Source of the DNA: an uncultured archaeon
Lineage (GTDB): Archaea > Iainarchaeota > Iainarchaeia > Iainarchaeales > JAAZKV01
Direction: 5' to 3'
DNA: 64,000 nt
Assembly: GCA_964619405.1 (NCBI GenBank)
Contig: CAZUCF010000001.1
Span: 33,633 to 97,632 of the forward strand
Of this stretch, positions 2,972 to 61,415 are shown in pieces (positions within the stretch are counted from its first letter, which is position 1; each line of letters starts with the position of its first letter). The translations under genes were made by a program, and so were the position numbers. Below the pieces are notes generated by a model. It made no database searches. It saw only the letters and a list, made by a program, of their open reading frames with translations, and was not told the DNA's origin.

Positions 2972-3076
2972 TTATTCAAAACTTAATAACAAGAAAAACA
3001 ATACATAAAAAACAATTTTAAACAAAATAAAAACTAATTATATTTTTTAAAAAATTATTTGTTTAAAAAATTCAAA

Positions 3077-3628
3077 TTAATCCAATGCTGCTTTCTCTCT
3101 AAGTATTTTTACTATTGAATCTGTTCTTGAACCCCTTTTGAAAGTAGGTTCAGTTAAATAAAAGACTTGCCTATCTTTAACAACATCATAATAATTTGGC
3201 AGTTTTTTTACATATCTTTCTTGCAAATTTTTGTGATAAGACTCAACATCCTTATAAAATTGAGAACTCATAACATTAAAATTACCAGAACCCATTATTG
3301 AACCTAAATGATAAACATGCGGATCACTCTCAACAATTTTTAAATAAGCTTCAATTAAATCCGGTTTAGAAAAATCTAGTTGTAGTAATTCAATTGCTTC
3401 CAACTTGTACTCTAATTTCCAAAAAGCTATTTTTGGCCCGTAACCAACAATAACTTTTTCGTTTTGCAAAAAATCAATTGAACTCTTAATTGTAGCTAAA
3501 TGATATTTGGTTTTTGCCTTTATTCTACGCAAATTTGGTTGTGTAGAACCTTTATCCAAAAGTGCTTTAACAATATTCAAACGAATCTCATCATCAACCC
3601 TCATTTTTTGAGCCAAACCAATCACCAA
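3077..3628 (-). CDS. hypothetical protein
   Basis: 183-aa ORF with coding-like composition. No recognisable motif. Confidence 0.5.
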   Translation of the reverse strand: MVIGLAQKMRVDDEIRLNIVKALLDKGSTQPNLRRIKAKTKYHLATIKSSIDFLQNEKVIVGYGPKIAFWKLEYKLEAIELLQLDFSKPDLIEAYLKIVESDPHVYHLGSIMGSGNFNVMSSQFYKDVESYHKNLQERYVKKLPNYYDVVKDRQVFYLTEPTFKRGSRTDSIVKILREKAALD

Positions 3629-4008
3629 ACACCGAATATAGCCAAAATGACTACTTACTAACTCAAAGTAATATCAAAAGGATTTTAAATGTTATTTTTG
3701 TTACATGAACAAAGTATTAATCCTTATTAATGCGAGAACACTATATTAGAATATTGTAATTGTAGGAGGGGATAACTAAGGGGATTGAAAAAATTTTTGA
3801 GATATTGAATGGGAATTGTGGGCTGGCTCACCAGGCTAACTAATTTTAAGCTCACAGTTTTTATTCAAGGTAAACTAATTTTATTTTAAGAAAAAACTAT
3901 TTAACAATTATTTCTTTCCAGAATTTTTTTGTGGCAATTTATTTTTTGGTTTCAAATTAATTATTAATTATAAAAAATTTCGTTCTTGTTTTTAAAAAGT
4001 ATTCAAAA

Positions 4009-6063
4009 TTATTCTTTGTTTTTTTCAAGTGGTTCTTTTTTCTTAAAATTTTTCCAAGATTCTTTTGTCTTACAAACCATGTTAAGACACATCTTGTATT
4101 CAAATCTACCATTCTTTACTTTTATAACTGGTTCATTACATTCAACACACAATTCATTAGTTGTTGTTATAACACCTTTCTGTGGCAGTGGATAAGAATT
4201 ATTACAATTAGGATAATTAGAACAACCAACAAACCTTTTACCTGTTTTACCTTTTCTTATTACCAAATTTCCTTCCTTGCATTTATTACAAGGACCAATA
4301 ATGTTTGTTGAGTGAATTGCTTTTCTTATATCTAATCGAATATTTTCTTTTTGTTTTTGCAAAGTTTCCAGAATTTGCTTTAATCTGTTTGAAGAATCAC
4401 TAACAACTTCTCTCATATCTTTTTTTCCAGCCGCAATCTCATCCATTTCTTTTTCTAGTTGAGAAGTCATCTCTGGTTTTGTAACAATACTACAATTATT
4501 TTCTAGTGAATCAATAACCGCAAAAGCAATATCACTAGCTTCAATACTTTTATTGCCAATAATGTATTTCCTCGAATAAAGTTTTTGAATTATGTTTGGC
4601 CGCGTTGATTTTGTGCCAAGATTATGCGTTTCCATTAATTTTATTAAAGATGCTTGACTATAATGAGCAGGAGGCTGTGTTTCTTTTGCGAACAAATCAA
4701 TTTTCAAAACATTTATTTTATCATTAACACGCATCAATGGTAAAATAACTTCATTTAATTTACTATAAAAATAAATTGCTTTCCAACCAGGCTCAATAAT
4801 TGTTTGACCACGAGCAACAAATTCCTCATCCTTTCCTTCCATCAAAACCGAGACATTTGAAGTTACAGCATCTTTGTACAAAGTTGCAAGAAACCGCCTA
4901 CAAATCAATTCATAAATCTTCCAATCATCTTTATTCAACGAAGATTTTTTAACTGCTTGAACAGGATAAATTGGGGGATGATCTTTTGTTTCTTTCCCCT
5001 TACTGGGAACAATTTTTTCTTGTGACAAAACTTTTTGAACATCGTCAACAAATTCACTAATAGAAGCAAGCTTGTTAACAATTTCTTTAAGATTTAAAGA
5101 AGCAGGGTACGCTTTATTATCTGTTCTTGGATAAGAAGTAAAACCTCTTTGGTATAATGATTCAGCAATATCCATTGCTTTCCCAGCAGAAAAACCAGTA
5201 TTAGCAGCAGCCCTCAAAAATTCTGTTGTATTAAAAGGAACCGGCCTCTTTAATGTTGTTTGTTTTTCATCAATTTTTTTTACAATTAATTCACTAATAT
5301 TTTTGGAAATAATTTTATCTGCTTTTTCTTTTTCCCAAAATTTTCCTTCCTTGTGAGAAGCAGAAAACTTTTCTCCTTTTTCACATTCAACAATAATCTC
5401 CCAATATTTTTTTGATTGAAAAGCCTTTCTTTCTTTTTCCCTATCCACAATTAACGCTAGTGTAGGTGTTTGTACTCTACCAACACTCAAAAAATTTTTT
5501 CCTAATTGCCCAGAAGCAATCGAAAGAAATCTTGTTAGAACAGCACCCCAAATTAAATCAATTTCTCTTCTTGAATCAGCTGAAAAAGCAAAATTGTAAT
5601 CAAATTTTTCTAAATTAGAAAAAGATTTTTCAATATCTTCTTTTGCTATTGCTGAAAAATAAGCTCTTTCGACCTTAATTTTTTTATTTGATTTTTGAGC
5701 ATATTTAATTGCTTCTAACCCTATTGATTCTCCTTCTCTATCAGCATCTGTTGCAATAATTATTTTTTCGCAATCTAAAGCAGAATCAATTATACAATCA
5801 ATTATCCTAAATTCTTTTTTGGAATAAATTATTGGAGCAGAAATTAATTTTTCTAATGGGACTGCCATCCAATTAGAATAGTCTTTTGGAAACTCAACAT
5901 CACTAATGTGCCCGCGTAATGGAAGCACCCTTGTTTCCTTTCCTTGCCATTCAAAATCAAAAACTTTTGTCCCGAGAACATTTTTTTGAGAAACTTTTCC
6001 ATCAGCAAGCAAAGAAGCAATTCTTTCACCAGCAATGGCTTTTTCTGAAATAATTAGCTGCAT
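4009..6063 (-). CDS. topA: DNA topoisomerase, type IA, with C-terminal zinc ribbons
   Basis: The Toprim region reads IIIATDADREGESIG and the active-site region GRVQTPTLALIVDREKER. The C-terminus has C4 zinc ribbons (CNKCKEG...CSNYPNC; CVEC...CLNMVC). Confidence 0.9.
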   Translation of the reverse strand: MQLIISEKAIAGERIASLLADGKVSQKNVLGTKVFDFEWQGKETRVLPLRGHISDVEFPKDYSNWMAVPLEKLISAPIIYSKKEFRIIDCIIDSALDCEKIIIATDADREGESIGLEAIKYAQKSNKKIKVERAYFSAIAKEDIEKSFSNLEKFDYNFAFSADSRREIDLIWGAVLTRFLSIASGQLGKNFLSVGRVQTPTLALIVDREKERKAFQSKKYWEIIVECEKGEKFSASHKEGKFWEKEKADKIISKNISELIVKKIDEKQTTLKRPVPFNTTEFLRAAANTGFSAGKAMDIAESLYQRGFTSYPRTDNKAYPASLNLKEIVNKLASISEFVDDVQKVLSQEKIVPSKGKETKDHPPIYPVQAVKKSSLNKDDWKIYELICRRFLATLYKDAVTSNVSVLMEGKDEEFVARGQTIIEPGWKAIYFYSKLNEVILPLMRVNDKINVLKIDLFAKETQPPAHYSQASLIKLMETHNLGTKSTRPNIIQKLYSRKYIIGNKSIEASDIAFAVIDSLENNCSIVTKPEMTSQLEKEMDEIAAGKKDMREVVSDSSNRLKQILETLQKQKENIRLDIRKAIHSTNIIGPCNKCKEGNLVIRKGKTGKRFVGCSNYPNCNNSYPLPQKGVITTTNELCVECNEPVIKVKNGRFEYKMCLNMVCKTKESWKNFKKKEPLEKNKE

Positions 6064-19758: not shown

Positions 19759-22746
19759 ATGGTTACTGATTACTTGGAAGACTTATTAAACGAGGCAAAA
19801 AAAGATTCTAATAATAAAGAAGTGATTAAGGAAAACACACAAAAAATTAGTGAAGAAGAAGTTGCTAAAGATGTTAAAAAAGAGGATTTAAAAAAATTTG
19901 AGGAAAAACTTTCGCAAAACGAACTAGAACAAAAAATTGAACCAAACGACAAAAAAGAAAAAACAGAAGTAGAAAAAGAGTTAGAATCACAAAAAAAAAT
20001 TGAGTTAAAAAAATATGGAAAAACAACTATTTACGAAGTTCCAGGCAAAGCAATGAAATATTATTTTGTACCAACATTAAGACCAACATCAGCTGAAAGA
20101 AAAATAATTAATACTATAAAAGAAGCAACAACAAGACTAATTAGTATTGCACCATTCAGAATAAGAAATAATGATGAAAGAAGAATAATTTACAAGCAAA
20201 AAGTTCTTGACATAATAAAAAATAACCCATCATTAAACATTCCACCAACAAGAGTATCATTTTATGCTGACGCGGTAGTAAGAGAAATGGTTGGGTACGG
20301 TTTAATTGATGATTTAATAAAAGACGATAATTTAGAAGAAATAATGATTGTTGGCTCCAAAAAACCTGTTTTTGTTTTCCACAGAGAATATGAAATGATG
20401 CAAACTAATATAGAATTTTTTTCAGAACAAGAAATTGAGGATTTAGTAAACAAAATCGCAAGAGAAGTTGGACGAAGAGTAGATGTGTCAGCACCACTAC
20501 TTGACGCGAGATTATCTGATGGTAGCAGAATAAATGCTACAATACCACCAGCAAGTATTAGTGGTGGAACACTAACAATAAGAAAATTTAGGGAAGACCC
20601 TTACTCAATAATAGATTTAGTAAGAATGAATACTTTGAATAGTGAGGCAGCAGCGTTCCTATGGATGTGCGTTGATGGACTAGGAGTAAAACCAGCAAAC
20701 ATGCTGATTAGTGGTGGTACTGGCTCAGGAAAAACAACTCTTTTGAATGTGCTAGCATCATTCATACCAGAAAGAGAAAGAATAGTAACAATAGAAGACA
20801 CGGCAGAATTAAACCTACCCTTAAAACACTGGATTAGATTAGAAGCAAGGCCACCTGGATTAGAAGGAACAGGCGAACTAAAAATGGATATTCTAACAAA
20901 AAATTCTTTGAGAATGCGACCAGACAGAATAATTGTTGGAGAAGTAAGACACGAAGAAGCATTCACATTATTCACTGCTATCAACACGGGGCATGATGGA
21001 GCAATAATTGGTGAAAGCTTAATACAATTATCAAACGGAGAATTAATTGAAGCACAAAAACTATGTGAAAAATATTTTGATAAACCAATAAAAGAAAATG
21101 ATTACGAATTTGTTGAAATTAACGACGAATTATTTGTTCCAAGTTTAAACAAAGAAACATTAAAAATAGAAGACAAAAAAATAAATAGGATTTGGAGAAA
21201 AAAGAATGAAAAAAAATTGTTAAAAATAAAATTGCGTTCTGGAAAAGAATTAATCCTAACTAAAGATCATCCAATTTACAAAATTTGCAATGGAATAAGT
21301 GAAATAAATGCAGAAAATGTTTTAATTGGGGATTATATTGCCACACCAACAACAATAAAAATGAAATCTGAAGAAAGTATTGAGTGCCCATATTATTTAG
21401 GATTAGTTTATGGTGATGGGCACATAGGACAAGAAAGTATTGAATTTACAAACAAAGAAATTTCTCTAATAAATGCTTTTGAAGAAGAAGCAAAACAAAT
21501 AACAAAAAATAAAATTAAAAGAAAATTAAAAAATGCATATTATAGTTCATTTTATGATAAAAAAGCAGTGCGAAACCTAAACATAAATTATGAAATACCA
21601 ATTGGAAATAAAACAAAAACATTTGTACTAGGAAAAGAAATCATGCAAGGAAACGAAAAAGATTTAAGTGAATTAATAAAAGGGTTATTTGATTGCGAAT
21701 CACATGTTAACTTGCATTCAAACAGCATACAATTTTCTACATCAAATTTTGATTTAGCAAAAAAACTACCTTTAATATTACAAAGATTCGGAATACAATC
21801 CTCAACAAACATTCAAGAAAAAGATGGTAAAGGAAATATTGGACCATATTACAGAATATCAATTTATGGAAAAGACAATTTAGAAAAATACTCTCAAAAA
21901 ATTGGTTACAAGCATTCAGCAAAAAAAGAAGCATTAAAAGAATTAATTAAAAAATCAAAAAACTCTTTAGATTTGTTTCCAAACATGCAAAATGTTTTAA
22001 GGGATTTGAGAACAGAAAATAATTTAACACAAAAAGAATTATCTTTTTTAATTGGTAATAATACACCAAGTGTTTCATTATCACACGAAATAGGGACAAG
22101 AGCACCAACAAGAGAAATGTTAGAAAAAATTTGTAAACAAACCAATGGTAAAACAAAAAAACAATTAGAAATATTAACAAAATCAGATATTAGGTTTGAA
22201 AAAATAATTTCAATAAGCGAATATAATTACGATGGTTTTGTTTATGATTTAACTGTTGAAGACAACCATAATTACATTGCTAACGGAGTAATAATAAGTA
22301 ATTGCCTTGGAACAGTACACGCGAATTCTCCAGAAGAAACAATAGTAAGAGTGACTAGCCCGCCAATGAATGTACCAAACATAATGCTCTCAGGATTAGA
22401 CATGATAATAGTTGAACACAGGTACCACGACAGAAAAAAAGGAACTATTAGAAGAATAAGTGAAATAGCAGAAGTATATGGGGGCCTAGAAGGAAAACCA
22501 AAAACACAAACATTGTTTCAAAGAGATGCTGTAAAAGATTATTTGGAAAGAACAATGATTGATAGCATGTACTTAAAACAATTAAGAACTTTTACTGGTT
22601 TGTCAAAAGATAATTTGGATGCTGAGTTAAAACTAAGACAACAATTCATAGAAAATCTTGCTGAAAAAAATTTGAGAGAATTAAAAGATGTTAGTAAGAA
22701 AGCACATGACTTCATTAACAAAAGAAATCTAGGTGAAAAAATATGA
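19759..22746 (+). CDS. KlbA/TadA/FlaI-family secretion ATPase of the type IV pilus system, interrupted by an intein
   Basis: The extein carries the Walker A GGTGSGKTT, IEDTAELNL, the Asp box and His box NTGHDG...CLGTVHANS. A 434-aa insertion lies between TGHDG and CLGTVHANS. The assembled extein is about 562 aa. Confidence 0.85.
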   Translation: MVTDYLEDLLNEAKKDSNNKEVIKENTQKISEEEVAKDVKKEDLKKFEEKLSQNELEQKIEPNDKKEKTEVEKELESQKKIELKKYGKTTIYEVPGKAMKYYFVPTLRPTSAERKIINTIKEATTRLISIAPFRIRNNDERRIIYKQKVLDIIKNNPSLNIPPTRVSFYADAVVREMVGYGLIDDLIKDDNLEEIMIVGSKKPVFVFHREYEMMQTNIEFFSEQEIEDLVNKIAREVGRRVDVSAPLLDARLSDGSRINATIPPASISGGTLTIRKFREDPYSIIDLVRMNTLNSEAAAFLWMCVDGLGVKPANMLISGGTGSGKTTLLNVLASFIPERERIVTIEDTAELNLPLKHWIRLEARPPGLEGTGELKMDILTKNSLRMRPDRIIVGEVRHEEAFTLFTAINTGHDGAIIGESLIQLSNGELIEAQKLCEKYFDKPIKENDYEFVEINDELFVPSLNKETLKIEDKKINRIWRKKNEKKLLKIKLRSGKELILTKDHPIYKICNGISEINAENVLIGDYIATPTTIKMKSEESIECPYYLGLVYGDGHIGQESIEFTNKEISLINAFEEEAKQITKNKIKRKLKNAYYSSFYDKKAVRNLNINYEIPIGNKTKTFVLGKEIMQGNEKDLSELIKGLFDCESHVNLHSNSIQFSTSNFDLAKKLPLILQRFGIQSSTNIQEKDGKGNIGPYYRISIYGKDNLEKYSQKIGYKHSAKKEALKELIKKSKNSLDLFPNMQNVLRDLRTENNLTQKELSFLIGNNTPSVSLSHEIGTRAPTREMLEKICKQTNGKTKKQLEILTKSDIRFEKIISISEYNYDGFVYDLTVEDNHNYIANGVIISNCLGTVHANSPEETIVRVTSPPMNVPNIMLSGLDMIIVEHRYHDRKKGTIRRISEIAEVYGGLEGKPKTQTLFQRDAVKDYLERTMIDSMYLKQLRTFTGLSKDNLDAELKLRQQFIENLAEKNLRELKDVSKKAHDFINKRNLGEKI
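21001..22302 (+). mobile_element. intein (KlbA-type, Ala1...Asn, +1 Cys) with LAGLIDADG homing endonuclease and HTH
   Basis: The intein starts AIIGESLIQLSNGE immediately after the TGHDG extein motif and ends YDLTVEDNHNYIANGVIISN before CLGTVHANS. Internal LAGLIDADG blocks are LGLVYGDGHIG and IKGLFDCESHV. The paralogous ATPase at 43314..44837 has the uninterrupted NNGHSGCLGTIHANN. Confidence 0.8.
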
Positions 22747-46573: not shown

Positions 46574-46660
46574 AATAAAAACTATTTAATTTAACAAATA
46601 TAAGTATACAATTAAATACAAAAACTAAATCAAAAAATTAAGTAATTCACTTTGATAAAA

Positions 46661-46745
46661 CGGGCCCGGAGGGAATCGAACCCCCATCTCAAGATCGCTA
46701 CAATAATGCCGAAGTCTTGCCGGTTATCCATTGCCACACGAGCCC
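46661..46745 (-). tRNA. tRNA-Arg(UCG) with a 13-nt intron at the canonical 37/38 position
   Basis: The reverse complement GGGCTCG-TG-...TTCGATT...CGGGCCC-G folds into an acceptor stem (7 bp, one G.U), U8, a D-loop with A14 and GG, the anticodon stem CAAGA/TCTTG and a TPsiC arm GGGGG-TTCGATT-CCCTC. The anticodon loop CUUCGG[13 nt]A gives the anticodon UCG. CCA is not encoded. Confidence 0.65.
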
Positions 46746-46891
46746 ATAATATAATTGTGTTAAAGAAGTTTTTAATATTAATTAAAACAACCATTAAAGA
46801 TTTCTTTTATAAAGGTTATCAATTAAAAAATAAATTATCAGAGAACTTAAAATTAACAAAAAATAAGATATTGATTAAAAAAGGTGAATTT

Positions 46892-55700: not shown

Positions 55701-56009
55701 ATGTCTTTGAGTTATCCACACAAATGCTTAAACATTCTTGGAAACGAAATAAGAATAAATATAATAAAATCTCTAAGAGAAAAACCAAAAACGGTTTTAG
55801 AATTATGCGAAGAACAAGGAAAAGAACAAAGCACAATAAGCCACGCATTACAACAACTAAGAAAATGTAATTTTGTAGGATTTGAAAAAAAAGGAAAAGA
55901 AAGATACTATTTTATTAAAAGCAAAATATTTACTAAAAATTCAAACAAAAACATTTTAGAATTAATAGAAGAACACGTTAAAGAATACTGTGGTGAGAAA
56001 AATGAGTAA
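55701..56009 (+). CDS. ArsR/SmtB-family winged-helix transcriptional regulator
   Basis: The HTH reads NEIRINIIKSLREKPKTVLELCEEQGKEQSTISHALQQLRKCNFV. Confidence 0.75.
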   Translation: MSLSYPHKCLNILGNEIRINIIKSLREKPKTVLELCEEQGKEQSTISHALQQLRKCNFVGFEKKGKERYYFIKSKIFTKNSNKNILELIEEHVKEYCGEKNE

Positions 56010-57183
56010 AAAAATAATTTACCTTGACAATAGTGCGACAACACAAACAAGAAAAGAAGTGTTAAAAGAAACACAAAAATATTTTTTAAAAGAATTTGGA
56101 AATCCAAGTTCATTTCATTCAAAAGGATTTGAAGCAAAAAAAGCAATAAATAAATCAAGAGAAACAATTGCAAGAATATTGGGTTGTGAAAAAGAAGAAA
56201 TAATATTTACTGGATCAGGAACAGAAAGCATTAATTTAGCAATAAAAGGAATTGCTTTCAGAGAATTGTTAAAAGGAAGAAAAGGACATTTTATAACACA
56301 AAAAACAGAACATGACGCTGTACTAGAAAGCATGCACTGGTTAGAAAAACTTGGTTTTGAAGTAACTTACATTAATGTTGATGAAAACGGTTTAATAAAA
56401 TTAGGTGAATTAGAAAAAAAAATTAGGAATGATACTTTATTAGTTAGCATAATGTATGCTAACAATGAAATAGGAACAATACAACCAATAAAAAAAATAT
56501 CAGAAATATGCAAAAATAAAAATATTTTATTTCACACTGATGCCTGTCAAGGAGCAGAATACTTGAACCTAAATGTAAAAGAATTAGGAATAGATTTAAT
56601 GACAATAAATGGAAGCAAATTATATGGTTTCAAAGGAACAGGTTTATTATACAAGAAAAAAAAAGTTGAAATAGAACCAATAATTCATGGTGGAAAACAC
56701 GAGTTTGGTTTAAGAGCAGGAACGGAAAATGTAACAGGAATAATTGCTATAGCAAAAGCACTAGAAATAGCAGAAAAAGAAAAAAAAAATGAAACAAAAA
56801 GACTTGAAAAACTAAGAGATTATATGATTAAACGAATACTAAAAGAAATAAATAAAACAAAATTAAATGGTTCAAAAAAAAGGTTACCAAACAATGTAAA
56901 CATTTCATTTTATGGCGTAGAAGGAGAATCAATATTATTAATGTTGAACGAGAAAAGAATAATGGTTTCAACAGGATCAGCGTGCTCATCACAATCACTA
57001 GAACCAAGCCACGTGCTAATGGCAATAGGCCTCCCACACGAATTAAGTCACGGGAGTATAAGATTTAGTTTAGGAAAAACCACTACAAAAAAAGATGTTG
57101 ATTACACAATAACAGAATTAAAAAAAATAATAAAAAAACTGAGAAAAATGAGTCCTGTTTGGGAAAAGGAGTTGAACAAATGA
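55990..57183 (+). CDS. iscS: cysteine desulfurase (IscS/NifS family)
   Basis: Begins IYLDNSATT, continues with the PLP-lysine region INGSKLYGFKGTGLLY and ends with SCSSQSLEPSHVLMAIGL. The start is likely the ATG at 56002. Confidence 0.9.
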   Translation: MVRKMSKKIIYLDNSATTQTRKEVLKETQKYFLKEFGNPSSFHSKGFEAKKAINKSRETIARILGCEKEEIIFTGSGTESINLAIKGIAFRELLKGRKGHFITQKTEHDAVLESMHWLEKLGFEVTYINVDENGLIKLGELEKKIRNDTLLVSIMYANNEIGTIQPIKKISEICKNKNILFHTDACQGAEYLNLNVKELGIDLMTINGSKLYGFKGTGLLYKKKKVEIEPIIHGGKHEFGLRAGTENVTGIIAIAKALEIAEKEKKNETKRLEKLRDYMIKRILKEINKTKLNGSKKRLPNNVNISFYGVEGESILLMLNEKRIMVSTGSACSSQSLEPSHVLMAIGLPHELSHGSIRFSLGKTTTKKDVDYTITELKKIIKKLRKMSPVWEKELNK

Positions 57184-58685
57184 AATTTGAAGGACAAGAC
57201 TGGTTTTATTCAGCAACAGTAAAAGAGCATTTCTTGAAACCAAAAAATGTTTTAAAAAATGAAGGAGAAATAAAAAATTATAATGGTTATGGTAAAGTAG
57301 GGAACATGAAATGTGGAGACATAATGGAATTATGGATAAAAATAGAAAAAGGAATAATAAAAAAATGTAAATGGAGAACATTTGGTTCTATTCACCCACA
57401 AGAAAAAGTTTTAATGAGTGATTATACATATAAAGCAGCAAAAAATATAAAACCCGGAAATGTTATCATAGATGGCAATGGGAAAAAAAACCTTGTTGAA
57501 ACAAAAAAAGAAAAAGACTATTCTGGAAAATTAATAACTATTTTTTTGTCAACATCCAAATTTTATAATTTTACAGTTACCCCTAATCATCCAATTCAAA
57601 TAATAAAAAGAAATCAAGTTTCAATGATAAATAGATTAAAAGGAACCCATTGGTCAGAAGTATCTCAAAAAAAAATTGATTTTGCAGAATCTCAAATTTA
57701 TTCAGCAAGTGAATTAAGAAAAAGCGATTTTGTTTTATTTGGAATTTCAAAATTCACAAAAGATTCAAACGAATTAACTAAAGAATTATGCACTCTCTTA
57801 GGATATTATGTGTCAGATGGTGGAATACCTTCAAAAAACAGAGTAATATTTTATTTTGGTTTAGGCGAACAAAAATACATTAAAGAAATTGAAACAATAT
57901 GTAAAAAAAACAAATGGAAAACAATAACTTATAAAAGAAATACTGAAAATGTTTATTGCATACAAATAAATGAACCAAAAATAGCAGCAATACTTAGAAA
58001 ACACGGTGGTGAATCTGGAAACAAAAAATTTTCAGAAACCGTTCTCGTGTTACCAAAACAAAAACAACTAAAAATAATTAATTCATATGTAAATGGAGAT
58101 GGTTGGACAACACAACAAAATAAAAATTGGGAACCCCAATTTTTCATATCAACTTCAAACGAAATCATAGCAAATCAACTCCAAATGATGTTGGCCAGAA
58201 ACAAAATTTTTGCACCATTACATTATAGAGAACCACGAAAATTTGTAATAAAAGGAAAAACTTACAAAAATAAAGGCGAAATAAATTTGGTTTTCAGAAA
58301 AAATACAAAATATTCAAGAATAAAATTTAGTAAAAAAGAAAATGCTTTTTTAATACCAATATCAAAAATAATTGAAACTGATTATAATGGAAAAATAGTG
58401 GATTTGAGTCTTATTGAAACCCCAAACACATACAAAATAAAAGGAATATCAATTCATAATTGCGCAAGCGCAATAGCATCAACAAGCATGCTATCATTAA
58501 TGATTACAGAAAATGGTGGAATGAAAATAAAAGATGCTTTAAAAATAACTGGAAAAGATATTACAGAAAGATTGAAGGGCTTGCCCCAAATAAAAATTCA
58601 TTGCTCGGTTTTGGGCGACGAAGCACTAAGAGAAGCAATAAAAGATTATGAAAAAAAGCAAGAAATTAAAAACTCTGAAAAATAA
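57159..58685 (+). CDS. iscU: Fe-S cluster scaffold IscU/NifU, interrupted by an intein
   Basis: The extein is FYSATVKEHFLKPKNV...GNMKCGDIMELWIKI...KWRTFG | CASAIASTSMLSLMITENGGMKIKDALKIT...LPQIKIHCSVLGDEALREAI. It is 150 aa when joined. A likely start at 57180 overlaps the iscS stop (ATGA). Confidence 0.85.
   Translation: MGKGVEQMKFEGQDWFYSATVKEHFLKPKNVLKNEGEIKNYNGYGKVGNMKCGDIMELWIKIEKGIIKKCKWRTFGSIHPQEKVLMSDYTYKAAKNIKPGNVIIDGNGKKNLVETKKEKDYSGKLITIFLSTSKFYNFTVTPNHPIQIIKRNQVSMINRLKGTHWSEVSQKKIDFAESQIYSASELRKSDFVLFGISKFTKDSNELTKELCTLLGYYVSDGGIPSKNRVIFYFGLGEQKYIKEIETICKKNKWKTITYKRNTENVYCIQINEPKIAAILRKHGGESGNKKFSETVLVLPKQKQLKIINSYVNGDGWTTQQNKNWEPQFFISTSNEIIANQLQMMLARNKIFAPLHYREPRKFVIKGKTYKNKGEINLVFRKNTKYSRIKFSKKENAFLIPISKIIETDYNGKIVDLSLIETPNTYKIKGISIHNCASAIASTSMLSLMITENGGMKIKDALKITGKDITERLKGLPQIKIHCSVLGDEALREAIKDYEKKQEIKNSEK
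57387..58460 (+). mobile_element. intein (Ser1...His-Asn, +1 Cys) with LAGLIDADG homing endonuclease domain inside iscU
   Basis: The intein begins SIHPQEKVLMSDYTY right after TFG and ends KIKGISIHN before CASAIAS. The LAGLIDADG blocks are LLGYYVSDGGIP and INSYVNGDGWTT. It is 358 aa. Confidence 0.8.
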
Positions 58686-59814: not shown

Positions 59815-60570
59815 ATGTTCAAAGGATTTCTCAAACATGTTAATAATATAATTGATGCAAGCAATCTAATATTCGAAATAATTGATGCACGGTATCCTGA
59901 AAAAACACGAAATTTTGAACTCGAAAAAAAAATTCTAAAAAAAGGAAAAAAATTAATAATTATAATAAACAAATCTGATTTAGTAGAAAAAGAAAAAATA
60001 GAGAATGATAAAGAAAAATTATTTAACAAAACAAGATTTAGAACCATATTTGTTTCAGCAAAAAATAAAACAGGAATAAACTTAATAAGAAAAGAAATAG
60101 GCATGGCAAAAAAAGGCAACTCATTAACAATAGGAATTATTGGTTACCCTAACACTGGCAAAAGCACTTTAATAAATTCAATTGCTGGAAAAGGAAAGGG
60201 CAGGGTCGCAACATCAAAAAAAGCTGGTTTAACAAGAGGCTTGCAAAGAATAAAAATAAGTGATGGAATTTATTTGCTTGATAGCCCAGGAATAATACCA
60301 AGAAAAAAAGAAGAAACAGATTTGTTTTTAGTTAACTCAAAAAATATTAACCAGTTAAAAGACCTTGAAGGAACCGCTTACAAAATAATACAAGAAATCG
60401 GTTTAGACAAAATGATACAATATTTTAGAATAAAAAAAGTTAGTGACGAAGAAGAATTTTTGGAAGAACTAGCAATAAAACAAAACTTATTAAAAAAAGG
60501 AGCTTTACCAGACACAATCAAATCAGCAAGATTCTTGCTTGAAAGATACCAAAAAAACGAATTAGTTTAA
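59815..60570 (+). CDS. circularly permuted ribosome-biogenesis GTPase (YlqF/RbgA/MMR-HSR1 family)
   Basis: The G4 motif NKSDL precedes the G1 motif GYPNTGKST and the G3 motif DSPG. Confidence 0.8.
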   Translation: MFKGFLKHVNNIIDASNLIFEIIDARYPEKTRNFELEKKILKKGKKLIIIINKSDLVEKEKIENDKEKLFNKTRFRTIFVSAKNKTGINLIRKEIGMAKKGNSLTIGIIGYPNTGKSTLINSIAGKGKGRVATSKKAGLTRGLQRIKISDGIYLLDSPGIIPRKKEETDLFLVNSKNINQLKDLEGTAYKIIQEIGLDKMIQYFRIKKVSDEEEFLEELAIKQNLLKKGALPDTIKSARFLLERYQKNELV

Positions 60571-60652
60571 AAACAAAAATAATACAAAAAAATAACTAAT
60601 TTGGCATAAAAATAATAAATAAAATATTAAAATTAATATATTTTATAAAAAA

Positions 60653-60760
60653 ATAAATTAACACTAAATAAAAAAATAAATTAACACTAAATAAAAAAAT
60701 AAATTAACACTAAATAAAAAAATTAATTAACATAAAATAAAATTAACATACTAAATAAAA
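60653..60760. repeat. 23-bp tandem direct repeat array (3 perfect + 2 degenerate copies)
   Basis: ataaattaacactaaataaaaaa occurs at 60653, 60676 and 60699. Degenerate copies (attaattaacataaaat...) follow. Confidence 0.7.
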
Positions 60761-60992
60761 TGTTATAATCAAATAAAAAATTAGAATTGCCTTACTTAAC
60801 AAAAAAATTAGTTCAAGGATTCTATTAACTCAATAATTTTTCTAATATTAATCTTGTTTTTCAAAGACTTTTCTTTCTCTAAACGCAAATTGAATTCCAT
60901 TAATAATTCTTCATTGTTAAAACGCATAATAATAATAAGAAAAAAAGGATTATAAAACAAACGAATTTGATAAAAATGATATTAAATAGAGT

Positions 60993-61415
60993 TCAAAGAA
61001 TTGATTGTTGACCAATAATAACATTCAAATCAATTGAATGCTTTTTGGCTTCATCTAATGAGAGCATATAATTTTTTCCAGCAAGGTGAAAAACATCATG
61101 TTTAAGGAAAAGCCAGCCCTTATTTGGAATCTTCCAAGCGACAACGAATTCAGCACCAGCTTTCTCAGCCCAACCAATTTCTTCATCTAACTGTTCTTTA
61201 ACAATTGGTAAATAATTGCCTTTTCTTGCCTTACACTCAAAAGCCAGTATTTTGCCGTTTAAAAGAGCAACAATATCAGGACAAGGCAAAGGGTTAACAC
61301 CAGAACCTGCAACACGCAAAACAGCAAACCCCTTTGAATCAAGAATTTTTATTAACTCTCGCTCAGCATTTGCACCTTTATTATAATGAGCCATAAATGA
61401 AATAATACAAAACAA
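60993..61415 (-). CDS. hjc: Holliday junction resolvase Hjc
   Basis: The protein contains GANAERELIKILDSKGFAVLRVAGSG...PDIVALLNGKILAFECKARK, the canonical Hjc pattern. The start is probably the internal ATG (MAHYNKG). Confidence 0.85.
   Translation of the reverse strand: MFCIISFMAHYNKGANAERELIKILDSKGFAVLRVAGSGVNPLPCPDIVALLNGKILAFECKARKGNYLPIVKEQLDEEIGWAEKAGAEFVVAWKIPNKGWLFLKHDVFHLAGKNYMLSLDEAKKHSIDLNVIIGQQSIL

Follow-up and report, generated by a model that had tools for sequence, protein, structure and literature searches.

The stretch analysed here (the window, 64,000 nucleotides) carries, within the gene of the iron-sulfur (Fe-S) cluster scaffold protein IscU, an in-frame insert of 358 amino acids (aa) that we interpret as a true intein of class 1 in which a LAGLIDADG homing endonuclease is nested, located between Gly69 and the second ligand Cys of IscU in a low-GC, DPANN-type archaeon. 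An intact open reading frame (ORF) on the + strand, 57159..58685, spans iscU plus the insert. The iscU precursor extends over 57180-58685 (+) and is a 501-codon frame without interruption, encoding 501 aa; its probable start is the ATG at 57180, with a GGAG just upstream, as read from the sequence. Around the iscU locus the G+C content is about 26%. With slashes marking the boundaries of the insert, the precursor protein reads MKFEGQDWFYS...GNMKCGDIMELWIKIEKGIIKKCKWRTFG / SIHPQEKVLM...YKIKGISIHN / CASAIASTSML...IKIHCSVLGDEAL..., and the two junctions are ...KCKWRTFG / SIHPQEKV...(358 aa)...KGISIHN / CASAIASTS.... Because no residues are repeated across these boundaries, the placement of the junctions is unambiguous. 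The parts of the interrupted gene are the following:

57180..57386, + strand: N-extein of IscU, aa 1-69, with the first ligand Cys in GNMKCGD and RTFG at its end.
57387..58460, + strand: intein, 358 aa, Ser1 to His357-Asn358, recognised by its AlphaFold2 (AF2) model, Foldseek and profile matches; its approximate layout is an N-terminal splicing region (aa 1-120), an endonuclease domain (aa 121-299) and a C-terminal splicing region (aa 300-358).
57387..57389, + strand: TCT codon of Ser1, the N-terminal splicing nucleophile, which is Ser in 38 of 40 family members.
57579..57590, + strand: block B, T65-P-N-H68; T65 and H68 occur in 40/40 sequences, and the block pairs with TSGH of PI-PkoII.
57795..57824, + strand: LAGLIDADG motif 1, LLGYYVSDGG, with catalytic D144, aligning with lGyliaDGt of the TliVMA intein.
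58077..58106, + strand: LAGLIDADG motif 2, INSYVNGDGW, with catalytic D238; Pfam LAGLIDADG_3 gives 25.1 bits against a cutoff of 22.5.
58383..58460, + strand: blocks F and G, DYNGKIVDLSL (D339)...YKIKGISIHN (H357, N358); block F aligns with PI-PkoII.
58461..58463, + strand: TGC codon of Cys+1, which serves splicing as the C-extein nucleophile and becomes the second Fe-S ligand Cys of the ligated protein; the residue is conserved in all 39 homologues.
58461..58685, + strand: C-extein of IscU and stop codon; the extein corresponds to aa 70-143 of mature IscU and holds the third ligand (IHCS).

The identity of the host protein follows from the exteins. On the precursor, the Pfam domain NifU_N appears as two split matches, and on the 143-aa IscU from which the intein has been removed it becomes one unbroken match (E 3.2e-35, model positions 2-125 of 127). 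The spliced protein aligns gaplessly over the junction with the solved IscU proteins of Methanothrix (7c8m, 'frtfgCgaaia'), A. aeolicus, E. coli and human (ISCU), and the residue that follows the insert is therefore the Cys of the G-C-x-S/A-A-I-A motif. This Cys+1, embedded in the conserved TFG-C-[AG]-S-A-I-A, is the second of three ligand cysteines (CGD ... GC.SAIA ... HCS), and we take it to be the equivalent of Cys63 of E. coli IscU, the second of three cluster ligands. All three (C45, C428 and C475 of the precursor, in C-G-D, G-C-x-S-A-I-A and H-C-S) are invariant in the alignment of the intein-bearing family, and the exteins are still under IscU-like constraint, with the three Cys ligands and the Asp retained. 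As expected for an IscU, the gene is paired with a cysteine desulfurase: an Aminotran_5 gene lies directly upstream with an overlapping stop and start, and this pairing is repeated in related loci. The TGA stop of iscS and the ATG of iscU overlap as ATGA (window 57180-57183), an arrangement that suggests that the desulfurase and the intein-bearing scaffold are translationally coupled.

An AF2 model of the intein, built on 40 homologues (predicted local distance difference test, pLDDT, 93.5; predicted template modelling score, pTM, 0.91), is composed of a Hint splicing domain and a double-motif LAGLIDADG endonuclease. In Foldseek, the top full-length PDB matches of this model are exclusively intein-endonucleases, namely PI-SceI, TliVMA, PhoVMA, PI-PkoII and PI-PfuI (E 1e-18 to 2e-11, probability 1.00, more than 400 alignment columns), and the free LAGLIDADG enzymes I-DmoI and I-Tsp061I rank next (about 185 columns, probability 1.00). 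Among PDB sequences, phmmer recovered PI-PkoII in three collinear pieces (block B, endonuclease domain and block F), and the family profile matches the TliVMA, PI-PkoII and Mja KlbA inteins. The five intein-endonucleases named above, our best structural and profile matches, all have a Hint domain split by a double-motif LAGLIDADG endonuclease; they differ from the IscU intein in sequence (10-16% identity) and in their hosts (V-ATPase, DNA polymerase, ribonucleotide reductase), and the IscU intein is compact, without a large extra DNA-recognition region. A model of the whole precursor (pLDDT 84.5) places IscU secondary structure beside the intein, with the first ligand loop poorly defined.

Class-1 architecture is indicated by Ser1, a block B Thr-x-x-His, a block F Asp, a block G His-Asn, Cys+1 and the Hint fold, and also by an insert that is in frame, whose removal restores a conserved host protein and for which intein-free alleles exist. 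The endonuclease part has two helices, each with a catalytic Asp, and matches the alpha-beta-beta-alpha-beta-beta-alpha double-domain fold. Two other splicing mechanisms were considered and rejected: class 2 (KlbA-type), since the intein has Ser1 and not Ala1, and class 3 (WCT), since block F (GKIVDLSL) contains no Cys, the sole conserved Cys of the intein being C135 in the endonuclease domain. The initial annotation of the window had read the insert in IscU as an intein that contains a homing-endonuclease domain. This reading is borne out by the sequence, by the conservation of the family, by the fold prediction and by intein-free alleles with precise empty sites. The coordinates it gave to the 358-aa insert between RTFG and CASAIAS, 57387-58460, are exact. 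Its assignment of the second cluster-ligand Cys as the +1 residue agrees with the alignment to solved IscU and with the motif, and the terminal His-Asn (H357-N358) and the two LAGLIDADG blocks it had pointed out (LLGYYVSDGG, INSYVNGDGW) are present.

The insert belongs to a sizeable family. When the intein alone was searched against 5.8 billion proteins, at least 49 clusters (at 90% identity) with an intein at the iscU site were returned, and every cluster is a NifU_N protein from public metagenomes or metagenome-assembled genomes (MAGs). The window protein itself is present in the collection (P0050, from NCBI and Logan). The junctions of the full-length members all read ...TFG/S...HN/C[AG]SAI..., and the length of the Ser1-family intein is nearly fixed, at 356-361 aa. 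Residue conservation was counted over 40 sequences that are 29-71% identical to the window intein (46-71% without the Cys1 member P0048). T65, H68, D238, H357, N358 and Cys+1 are invariant in this alignment, D144 is found in 39/40 (E in the remaining one) and D339 in 39/40. Position 1 is Ser in 38 of the 40, Cys in one and Tyr in one, and the Ser1 codon is TCN in every fetched allele. Since 40 full-length homologues keep the motif residues and the AF2 model is a full intein-endonuclease fold, the motifs are not a chance pattern. The single Tyr at position 1 belongs to P0029 (592 aa, 6 member sequences; WSTFG/YLLPGAK). Class-1 splicing could not begin at Tyr, and this allele would represent one of three things: a dead intein, a sequencing error (TAT vs TCT) or something unusual.

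Scanned exhaustively by HMMER with the intein as the query, 1.84 billion representative proteins yielded 1286 relatives at E<=0.001. Many are full-length matches that lie within much larger proteins, which is the hallmark of inteins; those examined all lie inside larger host proteins. The named sources of the IscU family are DPANN-type archaea: Pacearchaeota (MBS3065522.1) and Woesearchaeota, Nanobdellati and Nanoarchaeia MAGs. The neighbour genes in the loci of the family (NurA, HerA-type DUF87, Hjc and PTH2) are archaeal. A separate case is an 11 kb contig (L012, JACPMG010000008.1; about 46% G+C) that carries, at 3001-4071, an IscU intein 46% identical to that of the window. The contig was binned as 'Candidatus Sungiibacteriota bacterium' (Candidate Phyla Radiation) and has genes for an IscS of 489 aa and an Fe/Mn superoxide dismutase beside the intein-bearing one; it represents either a mis-binned archaeal contig or a bacterial host.

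To our knowledge, Ser1 is common in inteins only alongside Ser+1 or Thr+1. The pair Ser1 and Cys+1 is rare, and the split GOS-TerL intein has been called its only known case (PMC10189870, PMC11766414). According to these two papers, it splices experimentally in GOS-TerL, where the oxoester-to-thioester transesterification is thermodynamically uphill; AceL-TerL, which is the nearest homologue of GOS-TerL, is rendered inactive by it (PMC11766414). In the contiguous, endonuclease-bearing IscU intein family, Ser1/Cys+1 is fixed in 38/40 members. The initial annotation had called Ser1 canonical: Ser1 is indeed there, and in the same 38 of 40 sequences, but the word undersells the rarity of its combination with Cys+1. 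A second likeness to GOS-TerL (Bachmann and Mootz, 2015, as described in PMC11766414 and PMC10189870) is the lack of a conserved 'NX-motif' His before block B; in the IscU family there is no invariant or nearly invariant His at positions 1-64, that is, between blocks A and B. The likeness drawn here between the two inteins is one of description. By the same accounts, GOS-TerL is a naturally split mini-intein with no endonuclease and a phage-type terminase host, whereas the IscU intein is contiguous, archaeal and endonuclease-bearing and stands for a whole family in which the pair is conserved.

The closest comparison is offered by other IscU inteins from public metagenomes (P0048, P0184, P0186 and P0197), which occupy the same site (KTFG/C...HN/C[AGT][AS]A), have the same architecture and are 28-31% identical to the window intein. 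They differ in having Cys1, and some of them lie in a methanogen-like rather than a DPANN-type IscU. Among 28 more distant relatives with extrapolated ends, Ser1 was found in none; most have Cys1, and most of the others have a Cys one residue off. Since neither these relatives nor the four same-site inteins have it, Ser1 looks derived within the DPANN IscU lineage, and a change from TGY to TCY would take one step.

Spliced IscU was used as the query of a word-indexed protein search, of which the best 120 matches were listed. Among the matches listed there are many intein-free orthologues, 132-160 aa long and with up to 86% identity. Intein-bearing IscU proteins, including the window precursor, are not among the best 120, although they share extein segments of 100% identity, and it seems that the tool drops matches that are split or gives them a low rank; because only intein-free proteins appear there, the fraction of iscU genes with an intein is not derivable from this search. 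A check for intein-less iscU in related genomes, which the initial annotation had recommended, was positive, and such genes occur in the same gene order, for example in P0063 and L015. The best intein-free orthologue among the matches listed, P0063 (GCA_028690725.1), lies in the order NurA - x - HTH - IscS - IscU - 233-aa protein - x - PTH2 - GTPase, where HTH is a helix-turn-helix protein, and its DNA is colinear with the window exteins after removal of the intein. The reconstructed empty site of the window iscU is AAATGGAGAACATTTGGT/TGCGCAAGCGCAATAGCATCA, and natural intein-free sites read AAATGGAAAACGTGGGGTTGTGCATCAGCAATAGCA in L004 and AAATGGAGAACCTTTGGGTGCGCATCAGCAATAGCA in L015. The latter comes from one of two sibling JGI samples. 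Compared with the intein-bearing locus of the other (L014, with the intein removed), L015 is 91% identical over 3.4 kb and about 96% identical within iscU, and its iscU is a clean empty site relative to L014.

Presence of the intein is patchy at short evolutionary distances. In the subclade of the window, each intein-bearing extein is nearer to an intein-free neighbour (84-99% identity) than to an intein-bearing one (75-88%). The pair P0019/P0021 is discordant, with inteins 91% identical and exteins 66% identical. Mean pairwise identity is 0.59 for the endonuclease domain, close to the 0.61 of the IscU core, and 0.51 for the splicing domain. Two independent pairs of intein-bearing and intein-free alleles show a crowding of substitutions close to the insertion point, at 12 nt or less from it (5/24 vs 12/373, p=0.002; 8/24 vs 52/378, p=0.016); in the close pair the junction-proximal substitutions are all synonymous. 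This crowding is suggestive of co-conversion of the flanks in homing, or of cleavage-resistant targets in the surviving empty alleles. When the junction flanks of intein-bearing alleles were compared for shared donor sequence, they were found to be strongly diverged. From the empty sites, the patchy presence, the discordance, the conservation of the endonuclease and the crowded substitutions, we favour a homing cycle that is still running.

Taken together, the sequence and the model make it very probable that a splicing-competent intein with an endonuclease domain resides in IscU; that the endonuclease is still active is an assumption towards which we lean with less assurance. By analogy with the standard class-1 pathway, from which we infer splicing, the order of the chemical steps and the endonuclease activity, iscU would be translated as a 501-aa precursor, in which Ser1 would undergo an N-O acyl shift assisted by Thr65 and His68 of block B. 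The thiol of Cys+1 would attack the Ser1 oxoester in the uphill transesterification, Asn358 would cyclise with the aid of His357 and of Asp339 in block F, and an S-N shift would link ...RTFG to CASAIA..., releasing a 143-aa IscU and a free 358-aa intein. The second ligand Cys of IscU would become available only after ligation. Since Cys+1 bonded to Asn358 cannot act as a ligand in the normal cluster site, it is a sound inference that splicing is required for scaffold activity. That splicing would be obligatory for Fe-S biogenesis as a whole, as the initial annotation held, is reasonable, and would presuppose that no further scaffold is encoded outside these 64 kb. The free intein would cut intein-free iscU at AAATGG-NNN-ACN-TTY-GGN/TGY-GCN-WSN-GCN-ATH-GC, and repair would copy the intein in, which constitutes homing.

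Several points weigh against this picture. Splicing and DNA cleavage are so far predictions. Efficient splicing is not assured, because the second step is unfavourable with Ser1/Cys+1 and AceL-TerL is inactive with the pair. The curated Hint models stay below threshold on the intein (Pfam Intein_splicing 15.9 vs 35.8 bits; TIGR01445 11.1 vs 24.5), and on the intein or its halves the Pfam and NCBIfam Hint models give sub-threshold matches only, so that the Hint assignment rests on motifs, profile search and predicted structure. As these and the conservation of the family all indicate the domain, we regard the low scores as a sensitivity limit of the models and not as a missing domain; the Pfam Intein_splicing threshold is exceeded by more distant relatives, in IscU, SufB and OFOR-beta, of what may be the same clade. 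With regard to mobility, the divergence of the inteins correlates overall with that of the exteins (Spearman 0.66), and much of the distribution could therefore be vertical inheritance plus loss. The crowding of substitutions at the junction was seen in two pairs only, and the 12-nt span was picked after inspection of the data. Finally, P0001 (from an ENA contig) differs from the window precursor by 2 aa, of which one is D144N (precursor residue 213, in LAGLIDADG motif 1) and the other G29R. It may represent an allele with a dead endonuclease that segregates in the population, and because it is nearly identical to the window precursor, the endonuclease can be losing activity in the lineage of the window.

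The last observations lead to the best-surviving alternative, a splicing intein whose endonuclease is dead. Such an intein would persist vertically since its imprecise loss would destroy an essential ligand site, and its patchiness would reflect occasional precise deletion or recombination with intein-free alleles. The correlated divergence and the D144N variant both fit this scenario, and many natural inteins do carry decayed endonucleases as part of the homing cycle. It is at odds, however, with the retention of both catalytic Asp residues in 39-40 of 40 sequences that diverge down to 45% identity and with an endonuclease domain that is better conserved than the splicing domain. Nor is any mini-intein derivative seen in the Ser1 family, which stays within 356-361 aa, and inteins 91% identical in exteins 66% identical are hard to explain without recent transfer. 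We therefore consider a dead endonuclease unlikely and prefer a homing intein, with the qualification, drawn from the near-identical P0001, that inactivation of the endonuclease also occurs.

The relatives of the homing intein of IscU provide a further perspective. Outside the Cys1 IscU inteins, the best-scoring ones sit in SufB and in the beta subunit of 2-oxoacid:ferredoxin oxidoreductase (OFOR-beta), and all of these are Cys1 inteins. The metagenomic SufB inteins (P0187, P0189-P0192, P0194, P0195, P0199 and P0201; junction YxEG/C...HN/CTAP) match the IscU intein over its full length (E 1e-35 to 1e-23, 24-30% identity). By alignment to solved structures, the SufB +1 residue is equivalent to E. 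coli SufB Cys254, presumably the essential sulfur-acceptor Cys. In the OFOR/PFOR-beta relative (P0185; SGIG/C...HN/CGSK), the +1 residue aligns with Cys46 of the Sulfolobus enzyme (5b48_B), which follows Cys12 and Cys15; we take Cys12/15/46/197 of OFOR-beta to be the ligands of its [4Fe-4S] cluster. The metagenomic protein P0186, an IscU of 638 aa, is interrupted by inteins twice: the first ligand Cys is directly preceded by a mini-intein of about 150 aa (GNVGNPV/CVVEGT...CATLHN/CGDIM), and the second by an intein that bears an endonuclease. IscU thus has at least two insertion sites, both at ligand cysteines. By these alignments, the Gly-Cys sites that related inteins occupy lie at functional cysteines of Fe-S proteins, and this may simply mean that Cys+1 inteins require an invariant Cys and that databases contain many SufB inteins.

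Of the described systems, the SufB (Pps1) inteins of M. tuberculosis and of archaea such as Ferroplasma are similar in that the host is an Fe-S assembly scaffold and the insertion lies after a Gly, directly before a functional Cys (EG/C in SufB, FG/C in IscU). Both inteins are full-length with a LAGLIDADG domain, and the M. tuberculosis SufB intein of 359 aa, with block B His67 (PMC8891592), compares closely with the 358 aa and His68 of the IscU intein. The hosts, in contrast, are non-homologous (a beta-helix in SufB, an alpha/beta fold in IscU), and SufB inteins have Cys1 where the IscU intein has Ser1. Because position 1 is Ser, the regulation by a Cys1-Cys+1 disulfide that was proposed for SufB is impossible in the IscU intein.

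It is tempting to speculate that the IscU intein has been domesticated as a conditional switch: splicing, and with it the supply of mature IscU, would be gated by the chemistry of Cys+1 or of the ligand Cys in the N-extein, through oxidation, persulfidation by IscS or the binding of Zn or Fe. Fe-S biogenesis would in this way be tuned to the redox or metal status, as has been proposed for the M. tuberculosis SufB intein. This idea is compatible with a homing intein. The +1 nucleophile is a redox- and metal-active ligand Cys, the nearest relatives outside IscU lie at functional cysteines of SufB and OFOR-beta, and a role as a stress sensor has been considered for the SufB intein (reference list of PMC4760082; PMC8891592). 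One could also argue that the uphill Ser1-to-Cys+1 step would raise the dependence on a free, activated thiol. However, Ser1 removes the Cys1-Cys+1 disulfide trap of the known redox-sensitive inteins, closely related organisms live without the intein, which is thus not needed for IscU function, and insertion at a conserved catalytic residue is already predicted by selfish homing. We consider such a switch improbable. The same improbable standing applies to the broader scenario, in which oxidation, persulfidation or the metal state of Cys+1 would make IscU maturation a post-translational checkpoint on Fe-S biogenesis in genome-reduced archaea, and in which the intein would belong to a wider clade of specialists for cysteines that handle Fe-S clusters (IscU ligand Cys 1 and 2, SufB Cys254, OFOR-beta Cys46).

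A non-splicing disruption, that is, an iscU pseudogene or fused gene with the intein motifs as relics, could be argued from the sub-threshold Hint models and from the Tyr at position 1 of P0029, but it is hardly credible and the pseudogene reading was rejected, given an uninterrupted frame that retains its coupling to iscS, catalytic residues conserved in dozens of diverged sequences, exteins that keep the three Cys ligands and the Asp under IscU-like constraint, and a confidently predicted fold. The initial annotation had itself named a lack of Hint-domain blocks or a disrupted pseudogene as grounds for abandoning the intein; the blocks are present and the frame is intact.

The homing intein in IscU is an element of a standard kind, a class-1 intein with a LAGLIDADG endonuclease, in a host gene and at a site that are undescribed in the literature searched. 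No description of an IscU or NifU intein was found in the full text of 8 million open papers and preprints, a search outside which InBase lies, and IscU and NifU are unmentioned in the text of the main intein census paper. The suggestion that such inteins had gone undescribed holds to this extent, namely that no paper was found, but the window intein is no one-off, with its 49 or more clusters. The automatic annotation of JGI labels some members 'NifU-like protein.../intein/homing endonuclease', so that the IscU intein is already known to databases.

Our general understanding of inteins is unchanged by this case. IscU would join the list of intein host proteins, and, with SufB, both major Fe-S scaffold families would then have been invaded at a functional Cys by related inteins. 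The family constitutes a natural, contiguous example of Ser1/Cys+1 over dozens of sequences, for a pair that the literature knows from one split intein, GOS-TerL. It should be useful for understanding the uphill oxoester-to-thioester step and possibly as a scaffold for protein engineering. It is also a compact test case for conditional splicing: the thiol that reacts is that of a redox- and metal-active ligand, and loci of the same gene order but without the intein provide natural controls. The alleles with and without intein in sibling metagenomes are suited to a study of the homing cycle in uncultivated DPANN archaea.

The genes around the window iscU resemble those of the related loci. Two genes precede it:

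55701..56009, + strand: ArsR-family HTH regulator gene (Pfam HTH_5, E 1.2e-11), found in the same place in loci L001, L004, L014 and L015.
55990..57183, + strand: cysteine desulfurase gene (IscS/NifS-like, class-V aminotransferase; Pfam Aminotran_5, E 1.3e-83, full model).

Downstream of iscU follow a 237-aa protein without domains, an archaeal-type PTH2 and a GTPase. Elsewhere in the window, a gene for a T2SSE/VirB11-type (KlbA-like) ATPase, 19759-22746 (+), holds a second intein of 434 aa at 21001-22302, with junctions NTGHDG/AIIGES...VIISN/CLGTVHA. It has Ala1 and a terminal Ser-Asn (class 2) and a LAGLIDADG domain (YYLGLVYGDGH, IKGLFDCESH), and Pfam recognises it by Intein_splicing (E 5.5e-27) and LAGLIDADG_3 (E 1.9e-13). 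The window therefore does carry two endonuclease-bearing inteins, one of them KlbA-type, as had been noted at the outset.

Two minor observations concern other parts of the window. Downstream of the GTPase gene, at 60400-61000, the G+C content falls to 15-17%, compared with about 26% nearby, and the GC skew changes sign; this AT-rich stretch contains no ORF of 110 aa or more. The sole tRNA in the 64 kb is a tRNA-Pro (CGG) at 46660-46746 (-), which at 85-87 nt is above standard length and may contain an archaeal intron.

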